Of a DNA stretch of 64,000 nt, positions 1,937-58,816 are shown piece by piece. The DNA is taken from contig OY253679.1 of NCBI GenBank assembly GCA_958009085.1, positions 124,001-188,000 of the forward strand. Direction: 5' to 3'. The notes under the pieces are model-generated. The model was not told the DNA's origin. It saw nothing but the letters and a program-made list of their open reading frames with translations, and made no database searches. Within the stretch, counting starts at the first letter, position 1. The number at the start of each line of letters is the position of its first letter. This DNA is from Protoeuglena noctilucae. Lineage: Eukaryota. Position numbers and translations under genes: made by a program.

Positions 1937-4735
1937 ATGTCCGGCCTGGTCAACATCGGGGCGGAGAACGCCGACGATGGGTTCTACAGGTGCGACGAGT
2001 CTCTCGGGCGTGCACGCTGGCGTCGCTGCGCTCGCGGCTCGACCGGCAATTCCGACGCGCTCCCGGCGGGTGCCGCGCAGGTACAAGATGCCGCAGCTGG
2101 TGGCCAAGGTGGAGGGCCGCGGCAACGGCATTCGCACCAACGTGGTGAACAACGGGGAGATTGCGAAGGCGCTGAGCCGGCCCCCCGAGTACGTGCTCAA
2201 GTACTTTGGGTGTGAGCTGGGGGCGCAGACGCGGTTCGAGAAGGACATGGGCACGTCGATCGTGAACGGGGCGCACACGCAAAAGGTGCTGTCGGACCTG
2301 CTCGAGGGCTTCATCAAGAAGTTCGTGCAGTGCTACACGTGCGGCAACCCCGAGACGGTCATGAAGGTGCGCAAGGACTTTGTCACGCTCAAGTGCAAGG
2401 CGTGCGGGGCCAAGTCCGAGGTCGACCCCCGGCTGAAGCTCAACACCTTCATCCTTAAGAACCCCCCCGAGGTGCGGAGCCGGATTTGCGGTGTTGTGGT
2501 GCTGGGTGCGTCGGGGGCATGGTGGCCGGCAGCGGCGACAATGGTCTCGGTCACTTGTGGTCGGCCCACCGTTGCATTGCGGCAGAGTGCGTGGGGGTTG
2601 AGACGAGGCTGGTCCGCCCTAGCTTCACCAGCCGTGCGGGCATCGCTGGAGTGAGGGCATCTTCACCAGGCGTGAGGGGTGACAAGGACTGATGCGTGAC
2701 TAGGAATCGTGTGATGCTCACAGGAGAAGATCTCCAAGAGTGAGAAGAAGGTTAAGGAGGACATGGAGAGCAAGGTCGGGGACCTGTTAGAGGCCACCAC
2801 GCCCAAGAAAGAGAAGGGGAAGGACAAGGACAAGGACAAGGCGAGGGGGGGTGTTGGTAGAGAGACTGCCTGCATGGGGTGGGATAAGCATGGCATTGCT
2901 GGAGCGTGTGCCTGCATGGGATGGGTCAGGCATTGCGGGGAACGGGGCGCGAGGTGGCACGCCGCTGCCACCACTGCGTCGTCGCTGTTCGTGCGATCGT
3001 CGCTAACAACCTCGTCATGCTGTCCCATTGCAGAAGAAGGACCGCAAGGATCGTTCCAGTAAGAGCAAGAAGTCCGAGGCGGAGGAGGGGCCAGGGGACG
3101 CGGCCAACGGAGAGGGGGCGGCAGCGGAGGGAGAGGGCGCGGGGGCGGAGGGGGCGCCGGCCGAGGCCAACGGCGCTGCGGGCAGCGAGGTGAGAGGCGG
3201 CGGGGCAGCGGGGCAGCGGGGCAGGGAAGAAGCGGGGCGGTGGAGCAAGGTGTTACCACGCTGGGGGTGTCTAGGGTGTCCAGGGTGTCAACCCTCCCAG
3301 GCAGGGGCAGCGCTGGCTGTTGGCCCAAGTTGCGCTTTCGTAGCCCCCCGCGCAGGACAGCGCAGACGAGGAGTTTTCCGTGGACACGTCGGCGGAGGCC
3401 GCAGCCGAGCGCGCGCGCCGGCAGCTGACGGGGGCGGCGGCCGCGCTGGTGTCGGGTGACCTGGCGAAGCAGGTGGTGCAGGGGGTGCGTCGGGAGGCGG
3501 AGCAGGAGGCCGAGGAGCGCGCGCGGCGCGAGCGCGAGGTGGCGGAGCTGTGCGAGCAGCTGCGGGGGTCCCTGAGCCTTGAGGACGCGGCGGCCAAGCT
3601 GCGGCAGGTGAGGGGCGGGGTGGGGTGGGGTGGGGTGGGGTGCACTTGGGTGGGAGTTGCGGTGGGGTGGGTGCAGTGGCGTGTTATTGGGCGGGGTGGG
3701 GGGTCGCGGTGGGGTGGGGTGCAGTGGGGTGGCGAGGAGGTGTGCGATGGCGGTTGGCCCTCTTGCCTCGCTTGTAATGGCTTTGCCTGAGCCACGGCAC
3801 GCCGGGTCAGAGACGGCTGGGTGTTTGTCTTATTCAAGTCACCCCCACACGGTCCTCCCCCCCGCAGGTGCTGCCCTTCAAGCGTCCCCTGGAGGTGCAG
3901 GAGATTGTGGTGGGCATGGCGGTGCCCAACGGGAAGGTCGGCCGCATGTTCGCGCTCTTCGACGCGGTCTTCACGGGGCCCGGAGGCGCCGACCCCGGCG
4001 TCAGGTGAGGCGCACACACCGCATATGAGCACAAGACCATCCGCATGCACACACCCTTTTTCTTGTGACGGCCTGCGCCTGGGCCACTCCCGATGGGATG
4101 CATGGAGAGTGTGTGCATGACGCAAGCCAGAGCCACACTCTCCTCGCCGTTGTGCCAACTCCGCATGGTATTATTGGTGACCCGTCCGTCCGCGTGTGCA
4201 ATGTGCCCCGCATGGCAAATTGGTAGCACATAGGTGCCTGTCTGCGTTTCTCTCTCCCAGGCTGGACAAGCTGGCGGAGAAGTTCAAGGCGTACCTGAAG
4301 GCCTGCGCCCCCGACGAGGCATACCAGGCGGCGCAGCTCATCGCCCTGGAGCGCCTGTGCGGGTTGTCGCTGCCGGCGCGCGTGAAGGAGGTGGCGCTGG
4401 TGATGAAGGTGCTGTACGAGTATGACATCGTGGGGGACGAGACGTTTGAGCAGTGGGAGGGGTCGGGGGACATCGTGCGCAAGTTCAAGATCCCCGCCGA
4501 GGGTGAGTCGGAGCATTTGGCAGGGACCGTGTGTGTCGCTGTGTCTATAAGGCATGGTGCATCAGTCGGGGAGGTTCGCGTGCACCGCTGGGACTGTGGG
4601 GCATGCCGGTGCGTGCGGAGGTGACTCAACATGCGCTCGCCTGCCCGTCTTGCAGCGTCGATGCTGGTGCGCACGGCGGCAGAGCCCTTCATGGCGATGC
4701 TCGCGGAGTCGTCGTCGGAGGAAGACGAGGACTGA
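1937..4735 (+). CDS. EIF5: Eukaryotic translation initiation factor 5 (eIF2B/eIF5 N-terminal domain plus W2 domain)
   Basis: MSGLVNIGAENADDGFYR|YKMPQLVAKVEGRGNGIRT...KYFGCELGAQT...FIKKFVQCYTCGNPET...CKACG, then a Lys-rich linker and C-terminal LYEYDIVGDETFEQW...PFMAMLAESSSEEDED*. Eight coding exons; GC donor at 2841. Confidence 0.96.
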
Positions 4736-5205
4736 TGAGACTGCAAGCGTGCGGGGGCTGTTGGGCTTTGTATAGACCCTTGGTTGCTTGCACGGGAACA
4801 CCCACACTCGCCACCCGCCCGTGCCAGTTGTCCCCATCTGCGCAGGCGCGAGCAAATATCACCCATTGTTCATGGTGTCGGTTTTGAATTGCTTGAGTGC
4901 GTACACATGATAGAAAGTGAGGCCAAAGGCGAATTGCAAGCTGCCACGGAGCTTGGCAGGGAAACATCTGCCCTCCCGACCTCTCCCGCGCCTCCTCAGC
5001 CCTTCCCGCGCTGCCCCCGCGTCCACGTCACCCGTCGCACTCCCCCCGTCCGACGCCACGCCCCCGTCCGACCCGTGACCTGGCACACTTGCCCGCGGCC
5101 TCGGGGCCCGCCCGGGGGCTCAAATAGGCCCGGGCGGCCCCGCCGGGCGACAGATCCTCGGCGACTCGCTCCGATCCGACAGCCACCGCACCCGACCACC
5201 CCACC

Positions 5206-6586
5206 ATGGCCCTCCTTCGCGCGATGCGGGCGGTCGCCCTGGCCCTGGCCCTCGTGGTCGCGGCGGCGTCGGCGACGCGCGGTGAGGCCTGAGGGGGCGG
5301 GAGCGGGGCGACCGTCGACGATGCGGGCGCTGCGGGTCGCGCGGGGCCCGGCCACGCCCCCCACCGCCCGCGCGGGCCCTCGCGAGTGCGACCCGTCGGG
5401 CCGGCCCCCGCGCGCGGGGAGACGTCGGGAGGGGGGACTGAGCAGCGCAGCGAGCGGCGTCGGGCGATGACCACCCGCCACCCGCTCCTCGCCCGCAGCC
5501 GCGCTCCCCGACATCGACATCGACGCGCCCAGCCGCACCCTGCTGCAGACCGGGCAGACCAAGTGAGCGCGGCGCGGGGCGGGGCGGGGATGCGCGGGGT
5601 GCGATGGACGCGGCGCTCATGCATCGGGCAGCGCGGGCGGGCAGCGCGGCGACTCAGGCTGTGCGGCGAGTGCGTGTGTGGCATGTCACACGCTTTTGCC
5701 GCGGCCTTGCAAGTCGGTCCATGCTCCTCGGCGCCCGCAGCGCCCAGGCCGGCGGCGGCGGCGGCGCGGGCCGCGGCAACAACCTCATCAACCAGGCCCT
5801 CGGCAACGGCGGCTTCGGCGGCGGCTTCGGCGGCGGCACTGTGGGCCAGATCAAGTGAGTCCGCGCGCCGCCCTCCCGCCCGCGGCTGCGACGGCGAGCG
5901 AGGGATGCGTGCTCTGAGCGGCGAGTCGTCAGGGCGGCATGGGATCAGTGTCACGCGCCCCATCGCACCGCAGCGCGCTGACGGGCGGTGGTGCTGGGGG
6001 CAACAACCTCATCAACCAGGCCCTCGGCGGTGGTGGGGGCTTCGGCGGGGGCAACGTCGGGCAGATCAAGTGAGGCGACATGGCACGGACTGCCGCACTT
6101 GCTCACAGCCTCCCGGGCGCTCCCTCATGCTGCCATGTGCCCTCACCTGCAGCGCGCTCGCGGGCGGCGCTGGCCGCGGCAACAACCTCATCAACCAGGC
6201 TGTCGGCGGCAACGGCGGTTACTACGGCGGTGGTGGCTACGGCGGCCTCGGCGGGGGCAACGTCGGGCAGGTCAAGTGAGGCTGGCTGCAGAGCATGCGG
6301 GCATGGGCGGGCCTCGTCGCAAGCCGCAACTCGTAATCATTGCCGCTGTTACATGCCCCTCTCAAAGTGTCTTCACCCGCACCCCGCTTCTCTCGACACC
6401 CGCAGCGCCCAGGCTGGCGGCGCTGGTGGCGCTGGTGGCGCTGGCGGCAACAACCTCATCAACCAGGCCGTCATCCCTTCCACGTACTACGTCCCCACGG
6501 GCAGCACGGCCATCAACAGCGGCGTGGCGGGCAGCGGGTACCCCGGGTACGGGTACAAGTGCCACCCCTGGCTGGGGTGCTACTGA
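5206..6586 (+). CDS. Secreted Gly/Asn-rich repeat protein, copy 1 (4 GNNLINQA repeats, about 217 aa)
   Basis: Exons 5206-5281, 5499-5562, 5741-5854, 5974-6069, 6153-6275, 6406-6586. Signal peptide MALLRAMRAVALALALVVAAASA, pro-segment ending SRTLLQ, repeats GQINA(L/Q)xGG..GRGNNLINQA(L/V)G, tail GYPGYGYKCHPWLGCY*. All introns GT-AG. Confidence 0.88.
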
Positions 6587-7082
6587 GAGGTGCCTTGGTC
6601 GCACCGGACGACGAGCGAGCACGCCTGCTTAGGCTTCCTAAGCGCTCCACAGCCTAGAGCCTGTCTGCGTCCTAGTAGCTATCCCGTAGACGCCATGCCA
6701 TGCGCTTGAAGATGTACATAGCAGTCTTTCACAGTCGCCTCCATGCTGGCAGCCAGCGCCAGTCACTGGCACTTCCCCTGCGGTGCACTGGCCAACACAG
6801 ACACCTGCGACCCTCAGACAGTCAGCCGCACTCCTGCACAGCCTCCGCTTGCCTTGGTTGTGCAAAGTCTCATCTGTGCAGAGGCGCTGCCCTTGCGCCT
6901 GCCATGCTGCAGTGCCGCCATCCGCGCTTAAAGCAAAACACTGAAGCGCGGTCAAAGCACGTCTAGCGTATCATATCATCTGCCGACCCCCACCCTGCGA
7001 CGCTGTGCGCGACCCCGCTGCCACACATGCCTTGCCGCCCCTCATACAAGCTGCGCCTCAAGTCCCCCCAGCACCCTCTCCG

Positions 7083-9458
7083 TCACTCAAAGTCGTCATG
7101 CGGGTACTCCTCCTCCGCCCCGTCTGTCCCCAAGTCCTCCAATTCCCCTTCCTCCACCGTGGCCAGCCCCGCACCCGATGCATCGTACCCACGCCCACTG
7201 CGCGCACTCTCCGCCCTCGCGACCGCGTGGCCCTCCCCTGCGCCCGCGTCACCGCCCTCCTCCCCCTCCCGCTCGCCCGCGGCGCCCTGGGTCCCCTTCC
7301 CCGCAGCAGCATGTGCGTCCCTCGCACCGCCCTCCACCACTCCCACCTGCGCCCCCGCGCTCACCGCCCCCTCAGATCGCGGCACAATCCCGCCCGGCGG
7401 CCCTCCGGCTCCATTGCCCCCAGCCGCCGCCGCTGACGCTGACGCGGGTGCACCCCCCGCCCCCACCTCTGTCGCAACCACGGGCGCACGGTAGGGGCTG
7501 TTGCGGAGCCTGCCGGGAGAGGCCCTGCGCGGCGCGGAGGGCTGCGCTCGCGGCGCTTGCAGGGGGTCTCTCGCAGGTGGTCTCTCCCTCGCGGCGTGGC
7601 CCGTGGAGTGCGGGGATGGCTGCGGGGCCCGGGTGCCCCTCTGTGGCGCGGCTGGAAATGCGGCACGGCTCCTGCGATGCGAGACGGGAGATGAAACACG
7701 GTTTGCAATCGGCGCTTGCTGTGTGCGATCGAGATACGCGGCAGCAAGCATGGCAGAGGGAGGGCACGCCTGTCGCTGTCGGCACCAGGTGCAGAAGACA
7801 GTGCACCTGTGGCTACCCTGCGCAATCCACTGCATTCACCACTCACTACACAACCGCATGCCGTCGCCCCTCGTCACCTGGTCGACCCCAGCATGCCCGA
7901 CCCCTCCCCCCGCGTGGCCGCCGCCATGTATGCCCCAAACTCGGCCGTTTCCTTGGCCTCGCGGCTGCCCGCCACGGTGTGCGGGAGGGACTCGAGGCGC
8001 TTGGCGGCCGCGGCCATGAGCGAGCCCGTGGTGCGGGGGCCTTTCACTGTCGAGGGAGCGGGGCGGGCCGGGGGGCGGTGGCGCGCCTGGTAGCCGGGGA
8101 AGTGTCGGTCGCGGAATGCGGAGTAGGATGACCGAAAGGCCGCGAGCATGCCGGAACCCTCCCCGTACGCCGCCTCCGCCACCTGCGGGGCAGCGGAGGG
8201 TGGCGGGTGGCGTGGTGGGGTGGGGCGTGGTTGGTCGGGATGGTGCGTCCAAAGAGTTGGCAGCGGGTGGGACATGTGAGGTAGAACTCATGACATGCAA
8301 ACGTCCCCCGTCTACGCTTTGCATTTGAATCCCTCGCCTTGAGGCAGGAGCGGTAGGTGGAGAGAGCCGTGCGTGTCATGCCGCAGTGTTCCATCTCCAC
8401 CGCCATGTTGTGCAATGCCACAGCGAGGCTGCCGGCAGCGGGGGGCAGCTGGCCGCCGCACTCGTCCTCCAGCACGCGCAGCCACTCCTCCAGCGTCGGA
8501 CTGCGGGCAGTGGAGACAAGAGACTGACATCAGACTGACATGCGACACTCCACAGTGCGGCCCTCCCTCGTCGCCACCCCTTGTGCCTGTCATGGACCCC
8601 GCAGCCCGGCCCCAGGTCTCACCTGACGGCGTTGGGCCTCGGGGGCCGCACGGGCAGTGCCGACTCAACTTCCATCACCGCCTGCCGGGCATACTGCAGC
8701 GCGGAGCGGTGGTCTCCCAGCTTGCTGCACACCGTGCACAGGTTGAGCAGCGTGCTGGCCGGGTCCTGCGCCGCGAGCGGGAAGGCCTCCTCGATGTCCA
8801 GGGCCTCCAGGAGACACGCGAGGGCGTCCGCGTGCTTGTCCCGGTACTTGTGGAAGCATCCCAGGTTGTTCAGCGTAGCGGCGCGGAGGCGGGCGCATGT
8901 CTCGGGCTCGGAGCCCATGATGGAGTCCCCGCGAGTCAGCAGCTCCGCCTTATCCAAGAGATCTTTCGCCTGCGCACGCGGGGCGGCCGGACTCCGCGTC
9001 GCGGCTCGGGGAGCGATCGCCTGCACGCAGCAGTCTGCTCCCGCGACCCGCGCGGTCCGCGTGAGCCGCCGGGCTCCGCGGAATCACGAGCGCTGCATAC
9101 CATGGCGTTTTTACTGTCCTCCATCAGGTTCATCGCCGCGCTGTTGCACAGCGTGGCCAAATGCGCGCATGTGTGCACCGCGCAGTCCTCCTTCCCGTCC
9201 GAGACGAACTGAGAGGGGCACGATGCTCGCGCATTTCGAGGGAAGAAGCGAAAGGAGCGGGAGAGCTCCGCGGTCCTCGCGACGTTGCGACAAGCCCTCA
9301 TTATCTGGGGGAGCACGCACCTGCTCGAGGCCCCGCTCAAGAATCGCGATGGCTTCCATCTCCTCCCCCGCGTTCTTCTTTTCATCTGCCTCCGCTATCA
9401 GCTTCTGCACCTCCGGCGGCACGTCCATGGCCGGCACGCTGGGGATGGTGCCCAGCAT
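7083..9458 (-). CDS. TPR-repeat protein with low-complexity acidic C-terminus
   Basis: AATLNNLGCFHKYRDKHADALACLLEALDIE, ASTLLNLCTVCSKLGDHRSALQYARQA and AVALHNMAVEMEHCG...ALSTY are TPR-like helices. Six exons, GC donor at 8337, ends TGA. Confidence 0.8.
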
Positions 9459-9849
9459 GTCCGCAGGTCCACCCCCCTCCCGCGCCCCCGACTGGGCAGC
9501 AAAGTCTCTCCACAGCAATAAGCTTGTCTATTTATGACTGGATTTGGCGGAACTCGGTCGAAGACGACAGGGAACGCCGCGGAGAAGTGTCGCAGCAAGC
9601 ACGCAGTTGTGTTTCGATTCCTCGCTAGCTCGCCGGCGGGGCCCGACGATATCCTACGCGCGGTGTAAGCATGCACGTACGTCCAGGCTGCGTATCACGC
9701 GGCGGAGGTCGCTCTGACAGCTGCCTTAACCTACCCAGCGTGACTTCAAGCTGGCTCTAGGCTGCAGTCCCGGCCTATCCTTATCGCAAATCCACGTTGT
9801 TTGAAAGACCCGTGTTATCTTCTCGGCCCCGCACCCGACACGTGCAGCT

Positions 9850-10663
9850 TCACACGACCACCTGGTACTCCTTCCCCTGCGGCAGGTGCAGGGGCAACGA
9901 GCGTTGCAGCGCTGCGGTCGCGCCTGGCTCGTCGCGATCCAACGCGCAGCGTTGCATCCCTTCCCGCGCACCCCATCTCCGCGTGCTCGCCTGGACCAGC
10001 GCGTTCCAGCGCTCCTTTTCGTAGTCCTCGGGCGTCTTGAAGTCCAGGTCGCAGTACGAGCGCCACGTGAAGGTGTAGCAGTCGAGGCAGAAGATCTCGC
10101 TCTCCCATTTCTTCTTGCCCCGGCACTAGATCTGCACGAAGTGGTGCTCCTTGGTGTTCTTCGAGCCGCAGCAGAGGCAGTCGGGGAAGTCGTCGTTGCG
10201 CTTCCAGTTTGCCGACCACTCGTCAAACGTCATGACCTTGTAGCCATCGCCGATGGACGGGTTGATCTGCACCGGCTCGCCTGCGGCGACGACCGCACGG
10301 GGCACGCTGTCTTGGCAGCAGCGCGCGGGATCACGCGCGCAGGCTCGGGCTCGCGCAGCACAGCTGCGATGTACTAGTTGCTTGCACTCGCCATTCATGA
10401 TCTTGAGCCATTCGCGCGAGTGCACGAGCGCCCGGGGCGCCTGCTGCGTGGACGTCTCAATGTCGACCACCAGGTCCTTGTTGTACTGCAGACCCTCCGC
10501 CTCCTTCTTCATCTTGCCTGCGTGAAACGAACGGCACGTGGGGTGGGGGGCGCCGGACCCGCGCTGAGCCGCAGCACGGCTGCCTTCGGCCTGTCCTTGA
10601 TTCCATTCCCCGGTGCGCTGGGACGACGAGGCATCCCCGTAGCGTGTCACCACACGCAATCAT
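9850..10663 (-). CDS. Small protein with two Cys pairs (zinc-ribbon-like), carrying an in-frame TAG
   Basis: Exons 10663-10651, 10517-10392, 10280-9991, 9876-9850: MIACGKMKKEAEGLQYNKDLVVDIETSTQ...WLKIMN|GEPVQINPSIGDGYKVMTFDEWSANWKRNDDFPDCLCCGSKNTKEHHFVQI*CRGKKKWESEIFCLDCYTFTWRSYCDLDFKTPEDYEKERWNALVQ|GKEYQVVV*. GC donors at 10391 and 9990. Could be a recoded gene or a fresh pseudogene. Confidence 0.8.
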
Positions 10664-11415
10664 TGACGAGCTATTCAATGAAAGCGCTCGTGTCCCTGCA
10701 CCTGTCGTATCCCACCGCCGGGAGCGGGACGCCGACTCGTCTTCCGAGCGCTTTTCCGTAAAGCAGGCGGCCAAGAAGGCGAGGCTAAGGTCAACAGCTG
10801 GCTTGTCGGAAGAAATTTGCCTTGCGGAGAGCCGCTAGGTCAGGTTGTCTCTCGGCGCAGGGGAATCGGGGACGCACCCCCGTGCCAGGCTAGTGTTTCG
10901 CGTGCGCGATGGCATTTAAAGCGCTTCTTCATGTGTTAGTGGCTCTATCAGCCGCTGCCTGCGTGGGAGTTGGCTTGCGGCGGATACGGGCCCTGAACAG
11001 CAGAGAATTTGCAGCCGCAGCCGCAGCCGCAACGCTTCCTTGCCTGTGTAATCCAGCCTATCTAGCCCCATTTTCAGAACCCCGTGCAGATATGACGTCA
11101 CGACAAAACCTCATTGCGCTGGCACACGCATCGCCCTGAACCAGCCCGCGTCGCCTGCCAATGAATCATCCACGTGACGCAAGGCCCCCCGCCATCAATA
11201 AGGCGCAAGCGTTTCCCGCGCTGCCCCCGCGTCCACGTCACCCGTCGCACTCCCCCCGTCCGACGCCACGCCCCCGTCCGACCCGTGACCTGGCACACTT
11301 GCCCGCGGCCTCGGGGCCCGCCCGGGGGCTCAAATAGGCCCGGGCGGCCCCGCCGGGCGACAGATCCTCGGCGACTCGCTCCGATCCGACAGCCACCGCA
11401 CCCGACCACCCCACC

Positions 11416-12572
11416 ATGGCCCTCCTTCGCGCGATGCGGGCGGTCGCCCTGGCCCTGGCCCTCGTGGTCGCGGCGGCGTCGGCGACGCGCGGTGAGGCCT
11501 GAGGGGGCGGGAGCGGGGCGACCGTCGACGATGCGGGCGCTGCGGGTCGCGCGGGGCCCGGCCACGCCCCCCACCGCCCGCGCGGGCCCTCGCGAGTGCG
11601 ACCCGTCGGGCCGGCCCCCGCGCGCGGGGAGACGTCGGGAGGGGGGACTGAGCAGCGCAGCGAGCGGCGTCGGGCGATGACCACCCGCCACCCGCTCCTC
11701 GCCCGCAGCCGCGCTCCCCGACATCGACATCGACGCGCCCAGCCGCACCCTGCTGCAGACCGGGCAGACCAAGTGAGCGCGGCGCGGGGCGGGGCGGGGA
11801 TGCGCGGGGTGCGATGGACGCGGCGCTCATGCATCGGGCAGCGCGGGCGGGCAGCGCGGCGACTCAGGCTGTGCGGCGAGTGCGTGTGTGGCATGTCGCA
11901 CGCTTTTGCCGCGGCCTTGCAAGTCGGTCCATGCTCCTCGGCGCCCGCAGCGCCCAGGCCGGCGGCGGCGGCGGCGCGGGCCGCGGCAACAACCTCATCA
12001 ACCAGGCCCTCGGCGGTGGTGGGGGCTTCGGCGGGGGCAACGTCGGGCAGATCAAGTGAGGCGACATGGCACGGACTGCCGCACTTGCTCACAGCCTCCC
12101 GGGCGCTCCCTCATGCTGCCATGTGCCCTCACCTGCAGCGCGCTCGCGGGCGGCGCTGGCCGCGGCAACAACCTCATCAACCAGGCTGTCGGCGGCAACG
12201 GCGGTTACTACGGCGGTGGTGGCTACGGCGGCCTCGGCGGGGGCAACGTCGGGCAGGTCAAGTGAGGCTGGCTGCAGAGCATGCGGGCATGGGCGGGCCT
12301 CGTCGCAAGCCGCAACTCGTAATCATTGCCGCTGTTACATGCCCCTCTCAAAGTGTCTTCACCCGCACCCCGCTTCTCTCGACACCCGCAGCGCCCAGGC
12401 TGGCGGCGCTGGTGGCGCTGGTGGCGCTGGCGGCAACAACCTCATCAACCAGGCCGTCATCCCTTCCACGTACTACGTCCCCACGGGCAGCACGGCCATC
12501 AACAGCGGCGTGGCGGGCAGCGGGTACCCCGGGTACGGGTACAAGTGCCACCCCTGGCTGGGGTGCTACTGA
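11416..12572 (+). CDS. Secreted Gly/Asn-rich repeat protein, copy 2 (3 repeats, about 182 aa)
   Basis: Near-identical to copy 1 including introns, but lacks 224 bp equivalent to 5805-6028, giving a hybrid repeat exon in frame. Same CHPWLGCY* tail. Confidence 0.88.
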
Positions 12573-12921
12573 GAGGTGCCTTGGTCGCACCGGACGACGA
12601 GCGAGCACGCCTGCTTAGGCTTCCTAAGCGCTCCACAGCCTAGAGCCTGTCTGCGTCCTAGTAGCTATCCCGTAGACGCCATGCCATGCGCTTGACGATG
12701 TACATAGCAGTCTTTCACAGTCGCCTCCATGCTGGCAGCCAGCGCCAGTCACTGGCAAGCTGCCCTTCAGCGCATTGGCCGATGCAGACACCTGGACACC
12801 TGCAGCCCTCAATTTGTGCTTCTCTCGACCCTCTCGGGTGCGCTGAGACTAGCTGTCGCTCGCTGCCGTGTTGCACCAACCCTTAAGACTCTTTCTCTGC
12901 GGACTCGTCAAGCAAAGCCCC

Positions 12922-16994: not shown

Positions 16995-19393
16995 ATGGAC
17001 GGCACTGGCACCCCGCCCCGTCCGCCGGGCAGCGTACCCTCGACGCCCACCCGGGCCTCGCAGCGATCGCAGGCTTCGGCCCAGCCCTCCACGCCGCCCC
17101 GCAAATGGACACCCCGCCGACCCCCCACCCCCGCCAAGACACCAAGGGGCGCCGCGAGTCCACTTATTGAGAACTGCGACGCACCCGGCGACGTGGAGAC
17201 CGCTCCCCTCCCCGCACCGTCCCCCTCGCACCCCGCCACTGCCTCGGCTGTGGCGGTGGGTGCGTTGGGTCATACCCTGGGTGTGGGTCATACCCTGCTG
17301 TGCGAGGTCACTCCCGCCAAGGAGGGACCACGCAGCCCGGCGCTGGCGTTGCCGGTGCTGGAAACCGGTGCGGGGGAGTGGGGCTGGGGTGTGGGAGAGG
17401 GAGAGGGCCTGGGTTTGGAATGGGGGACAAGAATGGGGATTGCGTCAGTGATGGGAGGAGTGGGAGACGAGGGGATGGGAGCGGTTGAGCGGGTGGCAGA
17501 GGGCAGGGGATGGGGCAGTGCAGCGGGGGAGGTGGGAGTGAGTGCATCACGAGTGACGCCTCACAACACGCCACAGCGAGGGGCGATGATGAGGGGGGTG
17601 AGCACAATGCCCGTTAACACCCCAGATCGGGGCGTGGGTGTGAGTGGTGTGCCTGTAGAGGTAAGCACGCCACCTCCTGCCACACCTGAGCGGGGCGTGG
17701 GGGCAGGGGCAAGCACCCCACCCGCTGGCACTCCACAGCGGGGCGTGGGTGTATTGGCAGGTGTGACTACTCCACCTCTCCGCACTCCACAGCGGGGTGC
17801 GAGGGGAAGCGAGAGCACGCCGCCTGTCGGGACGCCTGAGCGGGGCATGGGTGGTGGCGCTGCGGGGTGGGTGGACGCTGGGCAAGGGAGGGGGGGGTTG
17901 GCAGAGGGGGCGACGATGGGGGTGGCGTTCGCTGGGACAGTGGGGGGGCATGGAGGGGTGTCGATGGGGGTGGGGTTAGAAGACGGGGTGGTTGCAATGC
18001 CTGGAGAGGGGTCGCTGGCGAGGGCGGGAGTGGGAGAGGGTGGCGTGGGGGTATTGCCAAAGCATGAAACAGAGGGCATGACAGACAGTGGGGCTGGTGC
18101 GGCAGCGGCGAGCGAGGGTGGGGCGGTAGTTGGGGTTGAGGGCGGGACGCCAGCAAAAACAGAGGGTGGTGTTGTGGCTGAGGATCCGAGAGGGGCGCAG
18201 CTGGGCACAGAAAGTGGGAATGTGGCAGGGGCAGCGGGTGGGTCACAATCGGGGACAGAGGGTGCACGCGAGAGCGGCCGCACACGCCGCCCCCCCGCCC
18301 GCCTGCGCGATATGCTGACAGAGGGGGCGGACGGGGTTTCTGGCAAGAGCGGCGCGCGTGGCAAGCGTGGTTTGGCGAAGGAGTTGCAGGGCCTGGCTCC
18401 CTTTGCCTGGGACTCCCGAAGGTCCCTGCACCCGGTGGGGGCGGCCATGCAGCAGCAGTTCGGGGAAGTGAAGGTGAGGGGGGGTGGGTGTATGGGGTGT
18501 GTGTGAGTGCATGGGTGGGGGCGGCCATGCAGCAGCAGTTCGAGGAAGTGAAGGTGAGGGGGTGGGTGGGTGGCATGTGTAACAGCATGAGTGGAAGAGC
18601 GTCACCGGTGCATGTTGGTATCTCTCTGTTCCTATGCCTCCCATCTCCCATCACCACAACCTCTCGCTCACCCCACCCCACCCCACCCCACATTACCCCC
18701 CCAGGTGACCCTCAAGTCCCTCATCGACGCCGGCGCGATCGTCCCCGGCCCCCGCGCCCTCACCGTCCCCTTCCGCGGCCACGTCATGCACGGCGACCTG
18801 ACAGCCCAGGGAACCGTGCTCTTTCATGGGAAGGAGTTCGCCACCCCCTCCGCCTTCAGCCTCGCCGCGAAACGGGTTCTGACGCCCGAGCGCCAGGCGG
18901 ACGACGGGTGGCGGGCGGTGCACTTCAGGGGGGAGGCGTTGGAGGGGATTCGGCGAAGGCTGGACTTGGATGGGGGCGCGGGGGGGAGGGGCAGGCGGCG
19001 CGGGGTGAAGGGGGAGGGGGGGGAGGAGCAGGTAAGGGGTGGTGGTGGTTGGGGGTGGTGGGGTGCGTGAAGGGGGGGGGGGGGTGATTAGGGGGGTGAG
19101 AGACGGGCGGGCTACGGTTGCTTATGGATGTTACTCAGCCATCGAATCGCAAGAGAGTCCCTGCCCCCGACATACGTGACACATGACACCCCACACACTC
19201 ACTCACCCCCTCCCATCGCCCTTCCCTTCCCCTCTCTTCGCAGTCGCGTGACGCCGCGGATCGCAAGCGGCCAAGAGAGGCAGGCGGGGCAGCGGGGGCG
19301 GAAGTTGGGGTGGCAGAGGGGGGCATAGCGGGCAGCGTGACGGTGGGGGGTGTTGGTAAAGCACAAGCGGTGGGGGGCGGGCAAGAGGCTTAA
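16995..19393 (+). CDS. RAMA-domain protein (MPND N-terminal type) with TPxR-repeat disordered N-terminus
   Basis: Exon 18705-19031 encodes VTLKSLIDAGAIVPGPRALTVPFRGHVMHGDLTAQGTVLFHGKEFATPSAFSLAAKRVLTPERQADDGWRAVHFRGEAL, resembling the MPND RAMA domain. Start and end uncertain: first stop is TAA 19391-19393, close to the gap. Confidence 0.72.
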
Positions 19394-19516: not shown

Positions 19517-19716
19517 NNNNNNNNNNNNNNNNNNNNNNNNNNNNNNNNNNNNNNNNNNNNNNNNNNNNNNNNNNNNNNNNNNNNNNNNNNNNNNNNNNNN
19601 NNNNNNNNNNNNNNNNNNNNNNNNNNNNNNNNNNNNNNNNNNNNNNNNNNNNNNNNNNNNNNNNNNNNNNNNNNNNNNNNNNNNNNNNNNNNNNNNNNNN
19701 NNNNNNNNNNNNNNNN
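19517..19716. other. Assembly gap (200 N)
   Basis: Run of exactly 200 N between G-rich low-complexity flanks. Confidence 0.99.
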
Positions 19717-34132: not shown

Positions 34133-35616
34133 TCAGGGGAAGGCAGAGTTGATGAGGTTGTTGCCGCGGCCAGCCCCGCCGCCACCGCCGTTACCGTTGC
34201 CGGACTGCGCACTGCGGGGAGGGGCAGGCAGAAGGCTGTCATGCCAGCGCAAGCGGGGTGGCGCCAAGATTGCACATGCTTATGCCATCAAAGCAATGAA
34301 ACATGCTCGAAACCTGCGTGTATGTCGACTCACTTGGCCTGCGCGATGTTGCCGCCCCCGAAGCCGCCGTAGCCGCCGCCGAAACCACCACCGCCCATGG
34401 CCTGGTTGATGAGGTTGTTGCCGCGGCCAGCGCCACCAGCGAGCGCGCTGCGTATCAGAAAGCACGGCAGAGCGTCAAAGAGCGCTCAGGCAAGCAAGAG
34501 AGCAAGAGGCGCGGTCGGACAAGCCACGCTGCCTCACTTGATCTGCCCAACGTTGCCCCCGCCAAAGCCGCCATAGCCGCCGTAGCCACCGCCGTAGTAG
34601 CCGCCGTTGCCGCCGACAGCCTGGTTGATGAGGTTGTTGCCGCGGCCAGCGCCGCCCACGAGCGCGCTGCAGGTGAGGGCACATGGCAGCATGAGGGAGC
34701 GCCCGGGAGGCTGTGAGCAAGTGCGGCAGTCCGTGCCATGTCGCCTCACTTGATCTGCCCGACGTTGCCCCCGCCGAAGCCCCCACCACCGCCCAGGGCC
34801 TGGTTGATGAGGTTGTTGCCGCCGCCGCCGCCGCCCGTCAGCGCGCTGCGGTGTGATGGGGCGCGTGCCGCTAATGCCCCCATCTCCCCTGACGACTCGC
34901 TGCTCAGAGCACGCATCCTCCACTCGCCGTCGCAGCCGCGGGCGGGAGGGCGGCGCGCGGACTCACTTGATCTGGCCCACAGCGCCGCCGCCGAAGCCGC
35001 CGCCGAAGCCGCCGTTGCCGAGGGCCTGGTTGATGAGGTTGTTGCCGCGGCCCGCGCCGCCGCCGCCGCCGGCCTGGGCGCTGCGGGCGCCGAGGAGCAT
35101 GGACCGACTTGCAAGGCCGCGGCAAAAGCGTGCCGACATGCCACGCACGCACTCGCCGCACAGCCTGAGTCGCCGCGCTGCCCGCCCGCGCTGCCCGATG
35201 CATGAGCGCCGCGTCCATCGCACCCCGCGCATCCCCGCCCCGCCCCGCGCCGCGCTCACTTGGTCTGCCCGGTCTGCAGCAGGGTGCGGCTGGGCGCGTC
35301 GATGTCGATGTCGGGGAGCGCGGCTGCGGGCGAGGAGCGGGTGGCGGGTGGTCATCGCCCGACGCCGCTCGCTGCGCTGCTCAGTCCCCCCTCCCGACGT
35401 CTCCCCGCGCGCGGGGGCCGGCCCGACGGGTCGCACTCGCGAGGGCCCGCGCGGGCGGTGGGGGGCGTGGCCGGGCCCCGCGCGACCCGCAGCGCCCGCA
35501 TCGTCGACGGTCGCCCCGCTCCCGCCCCCTCAGGCCTCACCGCGCGTCGCCGACGCCGCCGCGACCACGAGGGCCAGGGCCAGGGCGACCGCCCGTATCG
35601 CGCGAAGGAGGGCCAT
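34133..35616 (-). CDS. Secreted Gly/Asn-rich repeat protein, copy 3 (5 repeats, different C-terminus)
   Basis: Inverted copy with near-identical promoter and first exons (M7I change). Extra exon ALAGGAGRGNNLINQAMGGGGFGGGYGGFGGGNIAQA and last exon AQSGNGNGGGGGAGRGNNLINSAFP*; no Tyr/Cys tail. Confidence 0.88.
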
Positions 35617-36188
35617 GGTGGGGTGGTCGGGTGCGGTGGCTGTCGGATCGGAGCGAGTCGCCGAGGATCTGTCGCCCGGCGGGGCCGCCCGGGCCTATTT
35701 GAGCCCCCGGGCGGGCCCCGAGGCCGCGGGCAAGTGTGCCAGGTCACGGGTCGGACGGGGGCGTGGCGTCGGACGGGGGGAGTGCGACGGGTGACGTGGA
35801 CGCGGGGGCAGCGCGGGAAGGGCTCAGGAGGCTGTGAATCGGTGAGTATCTTCAAAGATTTCAAGCCAGATAGTTTTTATGGCATGCAGGGTGCTTGAGC
35901 AGCCACCCTGGCCCCGCTTGCACACACAGACGTCATCCACAAGATCAATTACCTACAACCTTTTGCACAGCACCGCTCCCACGCCGCGGCCAGATGCAAA
36001 AAAGAGATTGGTTCGCTGACACGTCCTTGACTTGCACTATCCTGCGCCCGATTCCTCATGCTTTGCACATGATTGTTGCATCTAATCAACAGCACATGCT
36101 GCTGATGCCGTTGCATTGACCCCGCGGCGAGGGGAGGCCCCCCGGCACGTGTCATTGTGTCGCTCCCGTCTCTCCCGTCGCCATCGCC

Positions 36189-52672: not shown

Positions 52673-53372
52673 ATGGCCGCCAGGCTCGGGCTGTTCCGCG
52701 GCCTCAAGCAGCGGATTTTTGACTCGTACACCAAGAGCCTGGACAAGAACTTGCGGGCGCTGGGTCTGGTGAGCGGCGGCGCGCCCGGCGTGAGCGGGAG
52801 GAGAGGGTGGGACCGTCAGCGAGCGCGTCCGAGCGCGTCCCCGCGCTCCCGCACCCGCAGCGGTACGACGATCTGCTGGACCCGCTTCAGGACCCCGACG
52901 TGGAGGTCGCGCTGCGGCGCATCCCGGCCGCGGAGGTCGAGGGCCGCAACGCGCGCCTCCGCCGGGCGCTCAACCTCTCGATGAAGAAGGAGGAGCTGCC
53001 GGAGGACATGCAGGTGGGTCTTGCGAGATGGGCGCTCGCGAGAGATTAGGGATCGTGGTCGCAGGTGACCAGCAGAGTGCCGACCAGCTCGGGATCCACT
53101 GCGCCCCGCCTTTTCTCCCGTCCTGCAGGCCATGCAGACGCCCTTCATGCACTACCTGCTTCCTGAGCTGAAGAAAGTGCGGATGGAGAACCGGGAGGCC
53201 AAGGTGAGAGGGCGATTGCTCGCGTGTGGGTCGCAAGGGGCCTGCGTGTGCACTGATTCAACCCCTAGCGCCGCACAGTTCGTTCTGAGTTCACTGTTCG
53301 ATACCAGTTATCCCTGTCGTTCGCTCGCAGGCCCTCAACACCCCCCGTGCTTATCGCCGGAGCCTCCCGTGA
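52673..53372 (+). CDS. QCR7: Cytochrome bc1 complex subunit 7 (14 kDa)
   Basis: LRALGL|RYDDLLDPLQDPDVEVALRRIPAAEVEGRNARLRRALNLSMKKEELPEDMQ|AMQTPFMHYL...ENREAK|ALNTPRAYRRSLP*. Confidence 0.93.

Positions 53373-53758: not shown

Positions 53759-58816
<5,058 letters not shown>

Follow-up and report, generated by a model that had tools for sequence, protein, structure and literature searches.

A conserved green algal gene, for a small protein that we read as zinc-ribbon-like, carries an in-frame TAG at a position where nearly all its relatives encode Trp (TGG). The gene lies on the minus strand of the window, i.e., the whole stretch of DNA that was analysed (64,000 nucleotides), and the TAG occupies positions 10126..10128 (codon 92 of 146). 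The TAG is present in the DNA of every assembly that holds the locus, the ancestral residue is Trp, and the coding sequence is intact on both sides. A sequence-only reading of the locus had left five explanations unranked: sense reassignment of UAG, restorative A-to-I editing, programmed readthrough, a recent nonsense allele, and a base error. We prefer the fourth, which fits all the data: it is probable that a recent, fixed nonsense mutation produced a TAG that is read as a stop and that the protein is truncated.

Gene model and genomic evidence for the TAG

The minus strand reads CAC CAC TTC GTG CAG ATC TAG TGC CGG GGC AAG AAG AAA TGG, with the TAG at 10128..10126, inside an otherwise intact exon and between two Cys pairs (CLCC and CLDC), as the sequence-only reading had described. 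We modelled the gene as three exons (438 nt, 146 codons), in line with the length of its homologues (~140-150 aa). Exon 1 (10392..10512, minus strand) starts with the ATG at 10512-10510, comprises 40 codons plus one base, and encodes a peptide (MKKEAEGLQYNKDL...IMN(G)) that aligns with the N-termini of homologues. Intron 1 (10281..10391, minus strand; 111 nt, GC-AG, with boundaries G/GCGAGT ... CGCAG/GC) is supported by the homologues, which pass from IMNG directly into (D/E)PVEINPS. Exon 2 (9991..10280, minus strand) contains the TAG and encodes the conserved part of the protein, a zinc-ribbon-like core that includes the two Cys pairs; its peptide, written with X for this codon, is EPVQINPSIGDGYKVMTFDEWSANWKRNDDFPDCLCCGSKNTKEHHFVQIXCRGKKKWESEIFCLDCYTFTWRSYCDLDFKTPEDYEKERWNALVQA. 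It is followed by a putative intron 2 (9877..9990, minus strand; 114 nt, GC-AG, with boundaries CAG/GCGAGC ... GCCGCAG/GGG) and by exon 3 (9853..9876, minus strand), which encodes GKEYQVVV before a TGA stop at 9852-9850 (codon 146).

Codon usage follows this model. In the exons, GC3 is 0.92 upstream of the TAG and 0.96 downstream, the latter including the 45 exon-2 codons past the TAG (about 45 GC3-rich codons had been noted at the outset). Both introns are open in frame, with an in-frame GC3 of 0.65 for intron 1 and 0.79 for putative intron 2, versus 0.92 in the exons. Apart from the TAG, no second stop or frameshift was seen in the gene model, and the window holds one copy of the gene. The TAG could not be removed by splicing: the sole GT..AG that spans it is 12 nt long (GTGCAGATCTAG), as already pointed out from the sequence, and conserved residues abut the TAG on both sides, so no intron could excise it without losing some of them.

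Both intron donors of the gene are of an unusual type (G/GCGAG). This type is real in the organism, as a transcript-derived eIF5 protein (P0085, 475 aa) fixes one GC-AG intron with the donor AAG/GCGAGG. The eIF5 gene (1937-4738, plus strand) has at least seven exons and closes with TGA TGA at 4733-4738, and the GC-AG intron (2841-3033) is one of its six resolved introns. In the searched fragment, P0085 is 100% identical to the eIF5 of the window, and its tblastn pieces are 94-100% identical to it, except for the last piece, which spans a further intron. The best named relatives of the eIF5 fragment are from Pedinophyceae sp. YPF-701 (78%) and Apatococcus (77%), which indicates that the organism is a chlorophyte.

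The terminal part of the gene had been proposed to consist of a splice junction and a TGA-terminated last exon. The TGA is there; the splicing of intron 2 is putative, and the sole RNA-library contig over it is unspliced. An unspliced message would reach the same TGA, since putative intron 2 is open in frame. Around the gene, two metatranscriptome runs provide contigs of depth ~3.6 at 9682-9855 and at 9844-10073 (run X9). The latter is the one unspliced over putative intron 2, and it ends 53 bases short of the TAG. RNA-labelled contigs at 9000-9400 likewise run across a GT donor (9320) without being spliced, and the two observations together make DNA carry-over or pre-mRNA a likely source of the metatranscriptome contigs. 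Sampled words of the locus are nearly absent from runs X16-X19 (labelled "RNA?", organism A), which is no evidence of absence.

The TAG is in the genomic DNA, and a base error is excluded as far as contigs can show. A 1-kb stretch was present in 10 of the 22 listed sequencing runs, from three studies, and the runs holding the locus were marine metagenomes and runs labelled organism A (in culture). We aligned the contigs of 4 of the 22 runs to the window. Those of X3 (depth 278) and X6 (depth 21), both labelled organism A and both from a study (P2) that differs from that of the possible source, match the window over 9000-11242 without a single difference or gap. They break at 11213-11242, where the depth approximately doubles, and this fits a repeat: a segment of ~0.8-1.3 kb occurs three times in the window at 94-98% identity (4990-6817, 11213-12805 and, inverted, 34531-35832), with Gly-rich open reading frames (ORFs) that end in ...GNNLINQALG..GGNVGQIK and then TGA. 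In a collection of 5.8 billion proteins, the ORF of the window is found with three start variants (P0079, P0083, P0084), all ending in ...HHFVQI, i.e., at the residue before the TAG, on 6 + 3 + 2 = 11 contigs (ENA and Logan assemblies). No near-identical form with Trp was found in this collection, either among the proteins of 53-170 aa (65 matches) or among those of 171-2000 aa (14 matches). These comparisons concern contigs, which drop rare variants and may hide a minor TGG allele.

Protein family, ancestral codon and constraint

When the exon-2 peptide was searched with X at the TAG, all 65 candidate proteins (53-170 aa) matched at E <= 0.001; the best reach E = 1e-47, and their alignments span 97-100% of the query at 74-76% identity. 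The frame is thus no chance ORF. The named homologues are all from green algae ([Myrmecia] bisecta, Bryopsis, Coccomyxa, Trebouxia, Nannochloris). A profile search of 1.84 billion representatives, whose matches include many single-exon fragments, returned 242 proteins at E <= 0.001, 168 at E <= 1e-10 and 38 at E <= 1e-30. Pfam gave no family at its cut-off in any of 20 family members. One source names a Coccomyxa homologue as an HNH endonuclease, and we rejected this name: no HNH family appears in the 20 members even at E 0.5.

The AlphaFold2 model of the exon-2 peptide (pLDDT 77, pTM 0.57) predicts three strands (residues 42-49, 57-64 and 70-76) and a helix (83-96), with the break introduced by the TAG at residue 51. 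Four cysteines, C34, C37, C64 and C67, are invariant in our alignment of homologues (A2). Among known structures, the model comes closest to the zinc ribbons of NrdR, TFIIS, ZPR1 and Rpb9, all of them weak matches (Foldseek E 0.1); a weak match to a zinc ribbon has Z 4.6 and an rmsd of 2.6 over 45 residues. We interpret the family as a small protein without assigned function that resembles a zinc ribbon.

The residue at the TAG position is Trp in 18 of the 19 homologues of alignment A2, and Arg in one. Across the 331 non-window proteins, the motif CRG..W-E-S-E that follows the TAG was found in 79, and the preceding residue is Trp in 75 of them (Arg in 3, His in 1). In 3 of the 4 exceptions the sequence just upstream is unrelated, and the residue may come from intron read-through. 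We also retrieved 11 related loci from JGI metagenomes, the best with 73-76% identity and none from the same species; all six loci that show the site (L001-L006) have TGG. In four of these six, an acceptor-like ...CAG immediately precedes ACN-TGG, which suggests that many relatives have an intron just upstream that is absent from the gene of the window. The ATC TAG of the window and the ACN TGG of the relatives are of equal length, consistent with a plain substitution. The presence of Trp in algal homologues, put forward at the outset, is thus borne out: the ancestral codon is a Trp TGG, from which a single G-to-A change would have given the TAG.

The coding sequence around this codon is as well preserved as in the relatives, in agreement with the earlier claim that the gene has neither a frameshift nor signs of decay. 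Among the 42 columns conserved at >= 90%, the peptide of the window departs at two (E4Q, P78L), within the range of the 19 relatives (0-3). The related loci are too distant for a useful dN/dS, so we used protein identity and a relative-rate count. The nearest relative (P0013), which is 82% identical overall, has the Trp and is known from one Logan contig, matches the window at 29 of 35 residues upstream of the TAG and at 38 of 46 downstream, i.e., 83% in both halves; P0002 agrees with it at 72% of the residues upstream and at 78% downstream. When the remaining sequences served as outgroup, the changes specific to the window were 0 upstream and 3 downstream (M69T, P78L, E85D), and those specific to P0013 were 4 upstream and 3 downstream. 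The contrast between 0 and 3 hints at relaxation downstream of the TAG, in numbers far too small to test. In these comparisons we found neither relaxed constraint nor further defects past the TAG, and by its sequence the gene appears to be without detectable decay, its downstream part as conserved as its upstream part.

Interpretation of the interrupted codon

We propose that the TAG arose in this alga from the conserved TGG by one G-to-A substitution, and that translation most likely ends there as at any normal stop. Of the 145 residues, the first 91 would then be made, with one strand and the first CxxC knuckle; the second knuckle, the other two strands and the C-terminal helix would be missing. 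According to the structural model, such a protein should not bind zinc or fold, because of these losses. With intron 2 spliced out, the last exon junction would come 135 nt after the stop, and nonsense-mediated decay would then target the mRNA. The rest of the gene is without decay and fits only a very recent event, which suggests that the mutation is young when measured against the divergence from the nearest, 82%-identical relative. The locus would then be a newly made unitary pseudogene or null allele. Two observations sit less easily with a null. The culture and several marine samples all seem to be fixed for the allele. For a null of a gene that many green algae have kept, this is unusual; drift, or a gene that is dispensable, would account for the apparent fixation. 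In addition, an intact downstream half is also expected of selection on a recoded gene. It counts against the null reading, and it keeps the readings in which the codon is recoded alive.

If the ordinary reading is right, the locus captures the death of a gene at its first step, a single fixed nonsense change in a small conserved gene, and suggests that the gene is dispensable in this marine alga; it is then also a warning to annotators that the locus will be split or mis-modelled. If the codon is rescued by editing or readthrough, stop-codon correction would extend to green algae.

The function could also be supplied from elsewhere, by an intact TGG allele (a second haplotype or a minor variant) or by a paralogue, the copy in the window being a dispensable null. 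We regard this as doubtful. The loss of rare variants from contigs leaves room for such an allele, and the Trp protein P0013 exists. However, the gene is single-copy within the window, and the absence of a near-identical Trp form concerns a protein collection that holds the locus 11 times. P0013 is present on one contig, against 11 for the ORF of the window; this is better explained if it belongs to another, rarer organism than if it is a paralogue from this genome.

Readthrough is more doubtful still. In this reading, a near-cognate tRNA lets some ribosomes pass the UAG, and the full-length protein that they make suffices to maintain selection on the downstream half. Readthrough would account for a downstream half as conserved as the upstream one. 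The local sequence gives it no support. The type I readthrough motif is UAG-CAR-YYA, and the codons after the TAG of the window are UGC-CGG. The 171-nt stretch around the TAG folds no more stably than its shuffles (z +0.74), so that neither CAR-YYA nor a stable 3' structure was found. Furthermore, readthrough of UAG inserts Gln, Tyr or Lys rather than Trp, yet the position is Trp in those 75 of 79 relatives. A measured precedent in a green alga speaks for the reading: the TMV-type UAG-CAA-UUA is reported to give ~2.5% readthrough in Chlamydomonas (PMC7440625).

Below readthrough we place restorative A-to-I editing, in which UAG becomes UIG and is read as Trp, perhaps only at certain stages or under certain conditions, as for premature-stop genes of Fusarium and Neurospora; we consider it improbable here. 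The A of the UAG lies in a 7-nt loop of the minimum-energy fold of the surrounding 61 nt, with a U at -1. This U is automatic for any UAG, and the hairpin is not above background (z +1.09; 178 of 200 shuffles fold as well). Fungal editing is described as preferring an edited A in a hairpin loop with U at -1 (PMC11156358), a preference with which the local fold is compatible, and restorative UAG-to-UGG editing as rescuing premature-stop genes in Fusarium graminearum and other Sordariomycetes (PMC10776026, PMC11156358, PMC5496914). A genomic TAG that coincides with an ancestral TGG, the gene being intact in all other respects, matches the signature given for these fungal genes (PMC10776026, PMC11156358). 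Against this, a limited literature search brought up no account of mRNA editing of the A-to-I type in green algae (nuclear transcripts of Chlorophyta), and the window has only one such site in 64 kb. Nor did the protein-collection matches (53-2000 aa) include a spliced transcript-derived protein of the gene, edited or unedited, whereas the neighbouring eIF5 has one; this difference is a weak hint of a low mRNA level and no evidence of a silent gene. If editing proved true, it would be the first restorative editing of nuclear mRNA in a green alga and would parallel, with an independent origin, the ADAT-based system found in filamentous fungi.

That TAG has become a sense codon throughout the genome, as in the TAR=Gln code of some Ulvophyceae, is unlikely, and as the explanation of this codon we give it very little credence. 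Of the in-frame stops of the window, 399 are flanked both before and after by 40 or more open codons, and three of these pass a filter for coding-like GC3. Two are antisense frames: a TAG at 2333-2335 (minus strand), rejected as a second interrupted gene because it lies in the antisense frame of an eIF5 exon, and a TGA at 52816-52818 (minus strand), rejected as a third candidate because it is antisense to a plus-strand exon of the gene for the cytochrome bc1 14-kD subunit (Pfam UCR_14kD). The TAG at 10128..10126 is the sole one left, a lone in-frame TAG in the coding-like sequence of 64 kb, and it stands at a Trp position, not a Gln one. TAG also appears to serve as a terminator. In an AFG3L2-like FtsH gene, the last exon can be aligned with human AFG3L2 as far as ...LLEKEVL...GPRPFA, and its frame continues for 47 residues beyond GPRPFA, with a GC3 of 0.93, to a TAG at 58814-58816, after which codon bias falls. 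By homology and codon bias, this TAG very probably terminates the gene. The 475-codon transcript product of eIF5 is without in-frame TAG. In favour of reassignment, TGA dominates among the candidate likely terminators of the window (24 of 32), and the eIF5 gene itself ends in TGA TGA. No tRNA genes were found within the 64 kb. The pattern of NCBI table 6, i.e., in-frame TAG or TAA recurring in conserved genes and TAG absent as terminator, was not found, and this alga probably uses TAG as an ordinary stop. These observations speak against the sense codon that had been among the initial options.

The scan of the window brought other features to light. The AFG3L2-like (m-AAA) protease gene (~55779-58816, plus strand) has many short exons, and the GC content of some introns is far below that of the remaining window. 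An ORF at 18591-19067 (plus strand) matches RAMA, the Restriction Enzyme Adenine Methylase Associated domain, with E 5.6e-18 and lies just upstream of a gap; the gap, 200 N at 19517-19716, indicates that the window comes from a scaffolded assembly. Between ~40400 and 42470 there are dinucleotide-repeat-like stretches, with ORFs of VW or HT/TH runs and a very high GC3, which probably represent microsatellite DNA rather than genes.

Lastly, a sequencing or assembly error over a true TGG retains practically no credence, given the identical contigs of X3 (depth 278) and X6 (depth 21) from another study and the 11 contigs whose ORF ends at this same codon.

Comparison with known systems

A zinc ribbon has two CxxC knuckles on a three-stranded sheet; the predicted protein has the four invariant cysteines and three predicted strands, and its matches to known zinc ribbons are weak.

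Three systems in which a stop codon is decoded offer partial parallels to the interrupted codon. The variant nuclear code of Dasycladales, Cladophorales and their relatives, with TAA and TAG read as Gln (PMC2984419), shares with the present case a green algal host, an in-frame TAG and frequent TGA terminators; compared with the code as that source describes it, there is here a single TAG, at a Trp position, in a genome where TAG seems to terminate the FtsH gene. The TMV-type leaky stop, as described in PMC7440625, likewise places a UAG in a nuclear mRNA of a green alga, followed by open, coding-like sequence, but with CAA-UUA after the stop instead of the UGC-CGG found here; our stop lies inside a conserved domain and not at a C-terminal extension. 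The edited premature-stop genes of Sordariomycetes, as their sources present them, resemble the locus in the genomic TAG at an ancestral Trp codon, in the intact conserved gene and in the U at -1. They differ in that the host here is a green alga, the hairpin is not above background, and the case is known from DNA alone.

The closest parallel under the preferred reading, a recent nonsense mutation read as a stop, is the unitary pseudogene or null allele made by one nonsense substitution. The locus shares with it the TGG-to-TAG transition at a conserved codon, the lack of an intact copy in protein searches, the predicted truncation and the likely targeting of the mRNA by nonsense-mediated decay. 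Unlike a typical unitary pseudogene, it has no second defect and no excess of divergence downstream of the stop, which would place it, with its presumed loss of function, at the very start of decay.
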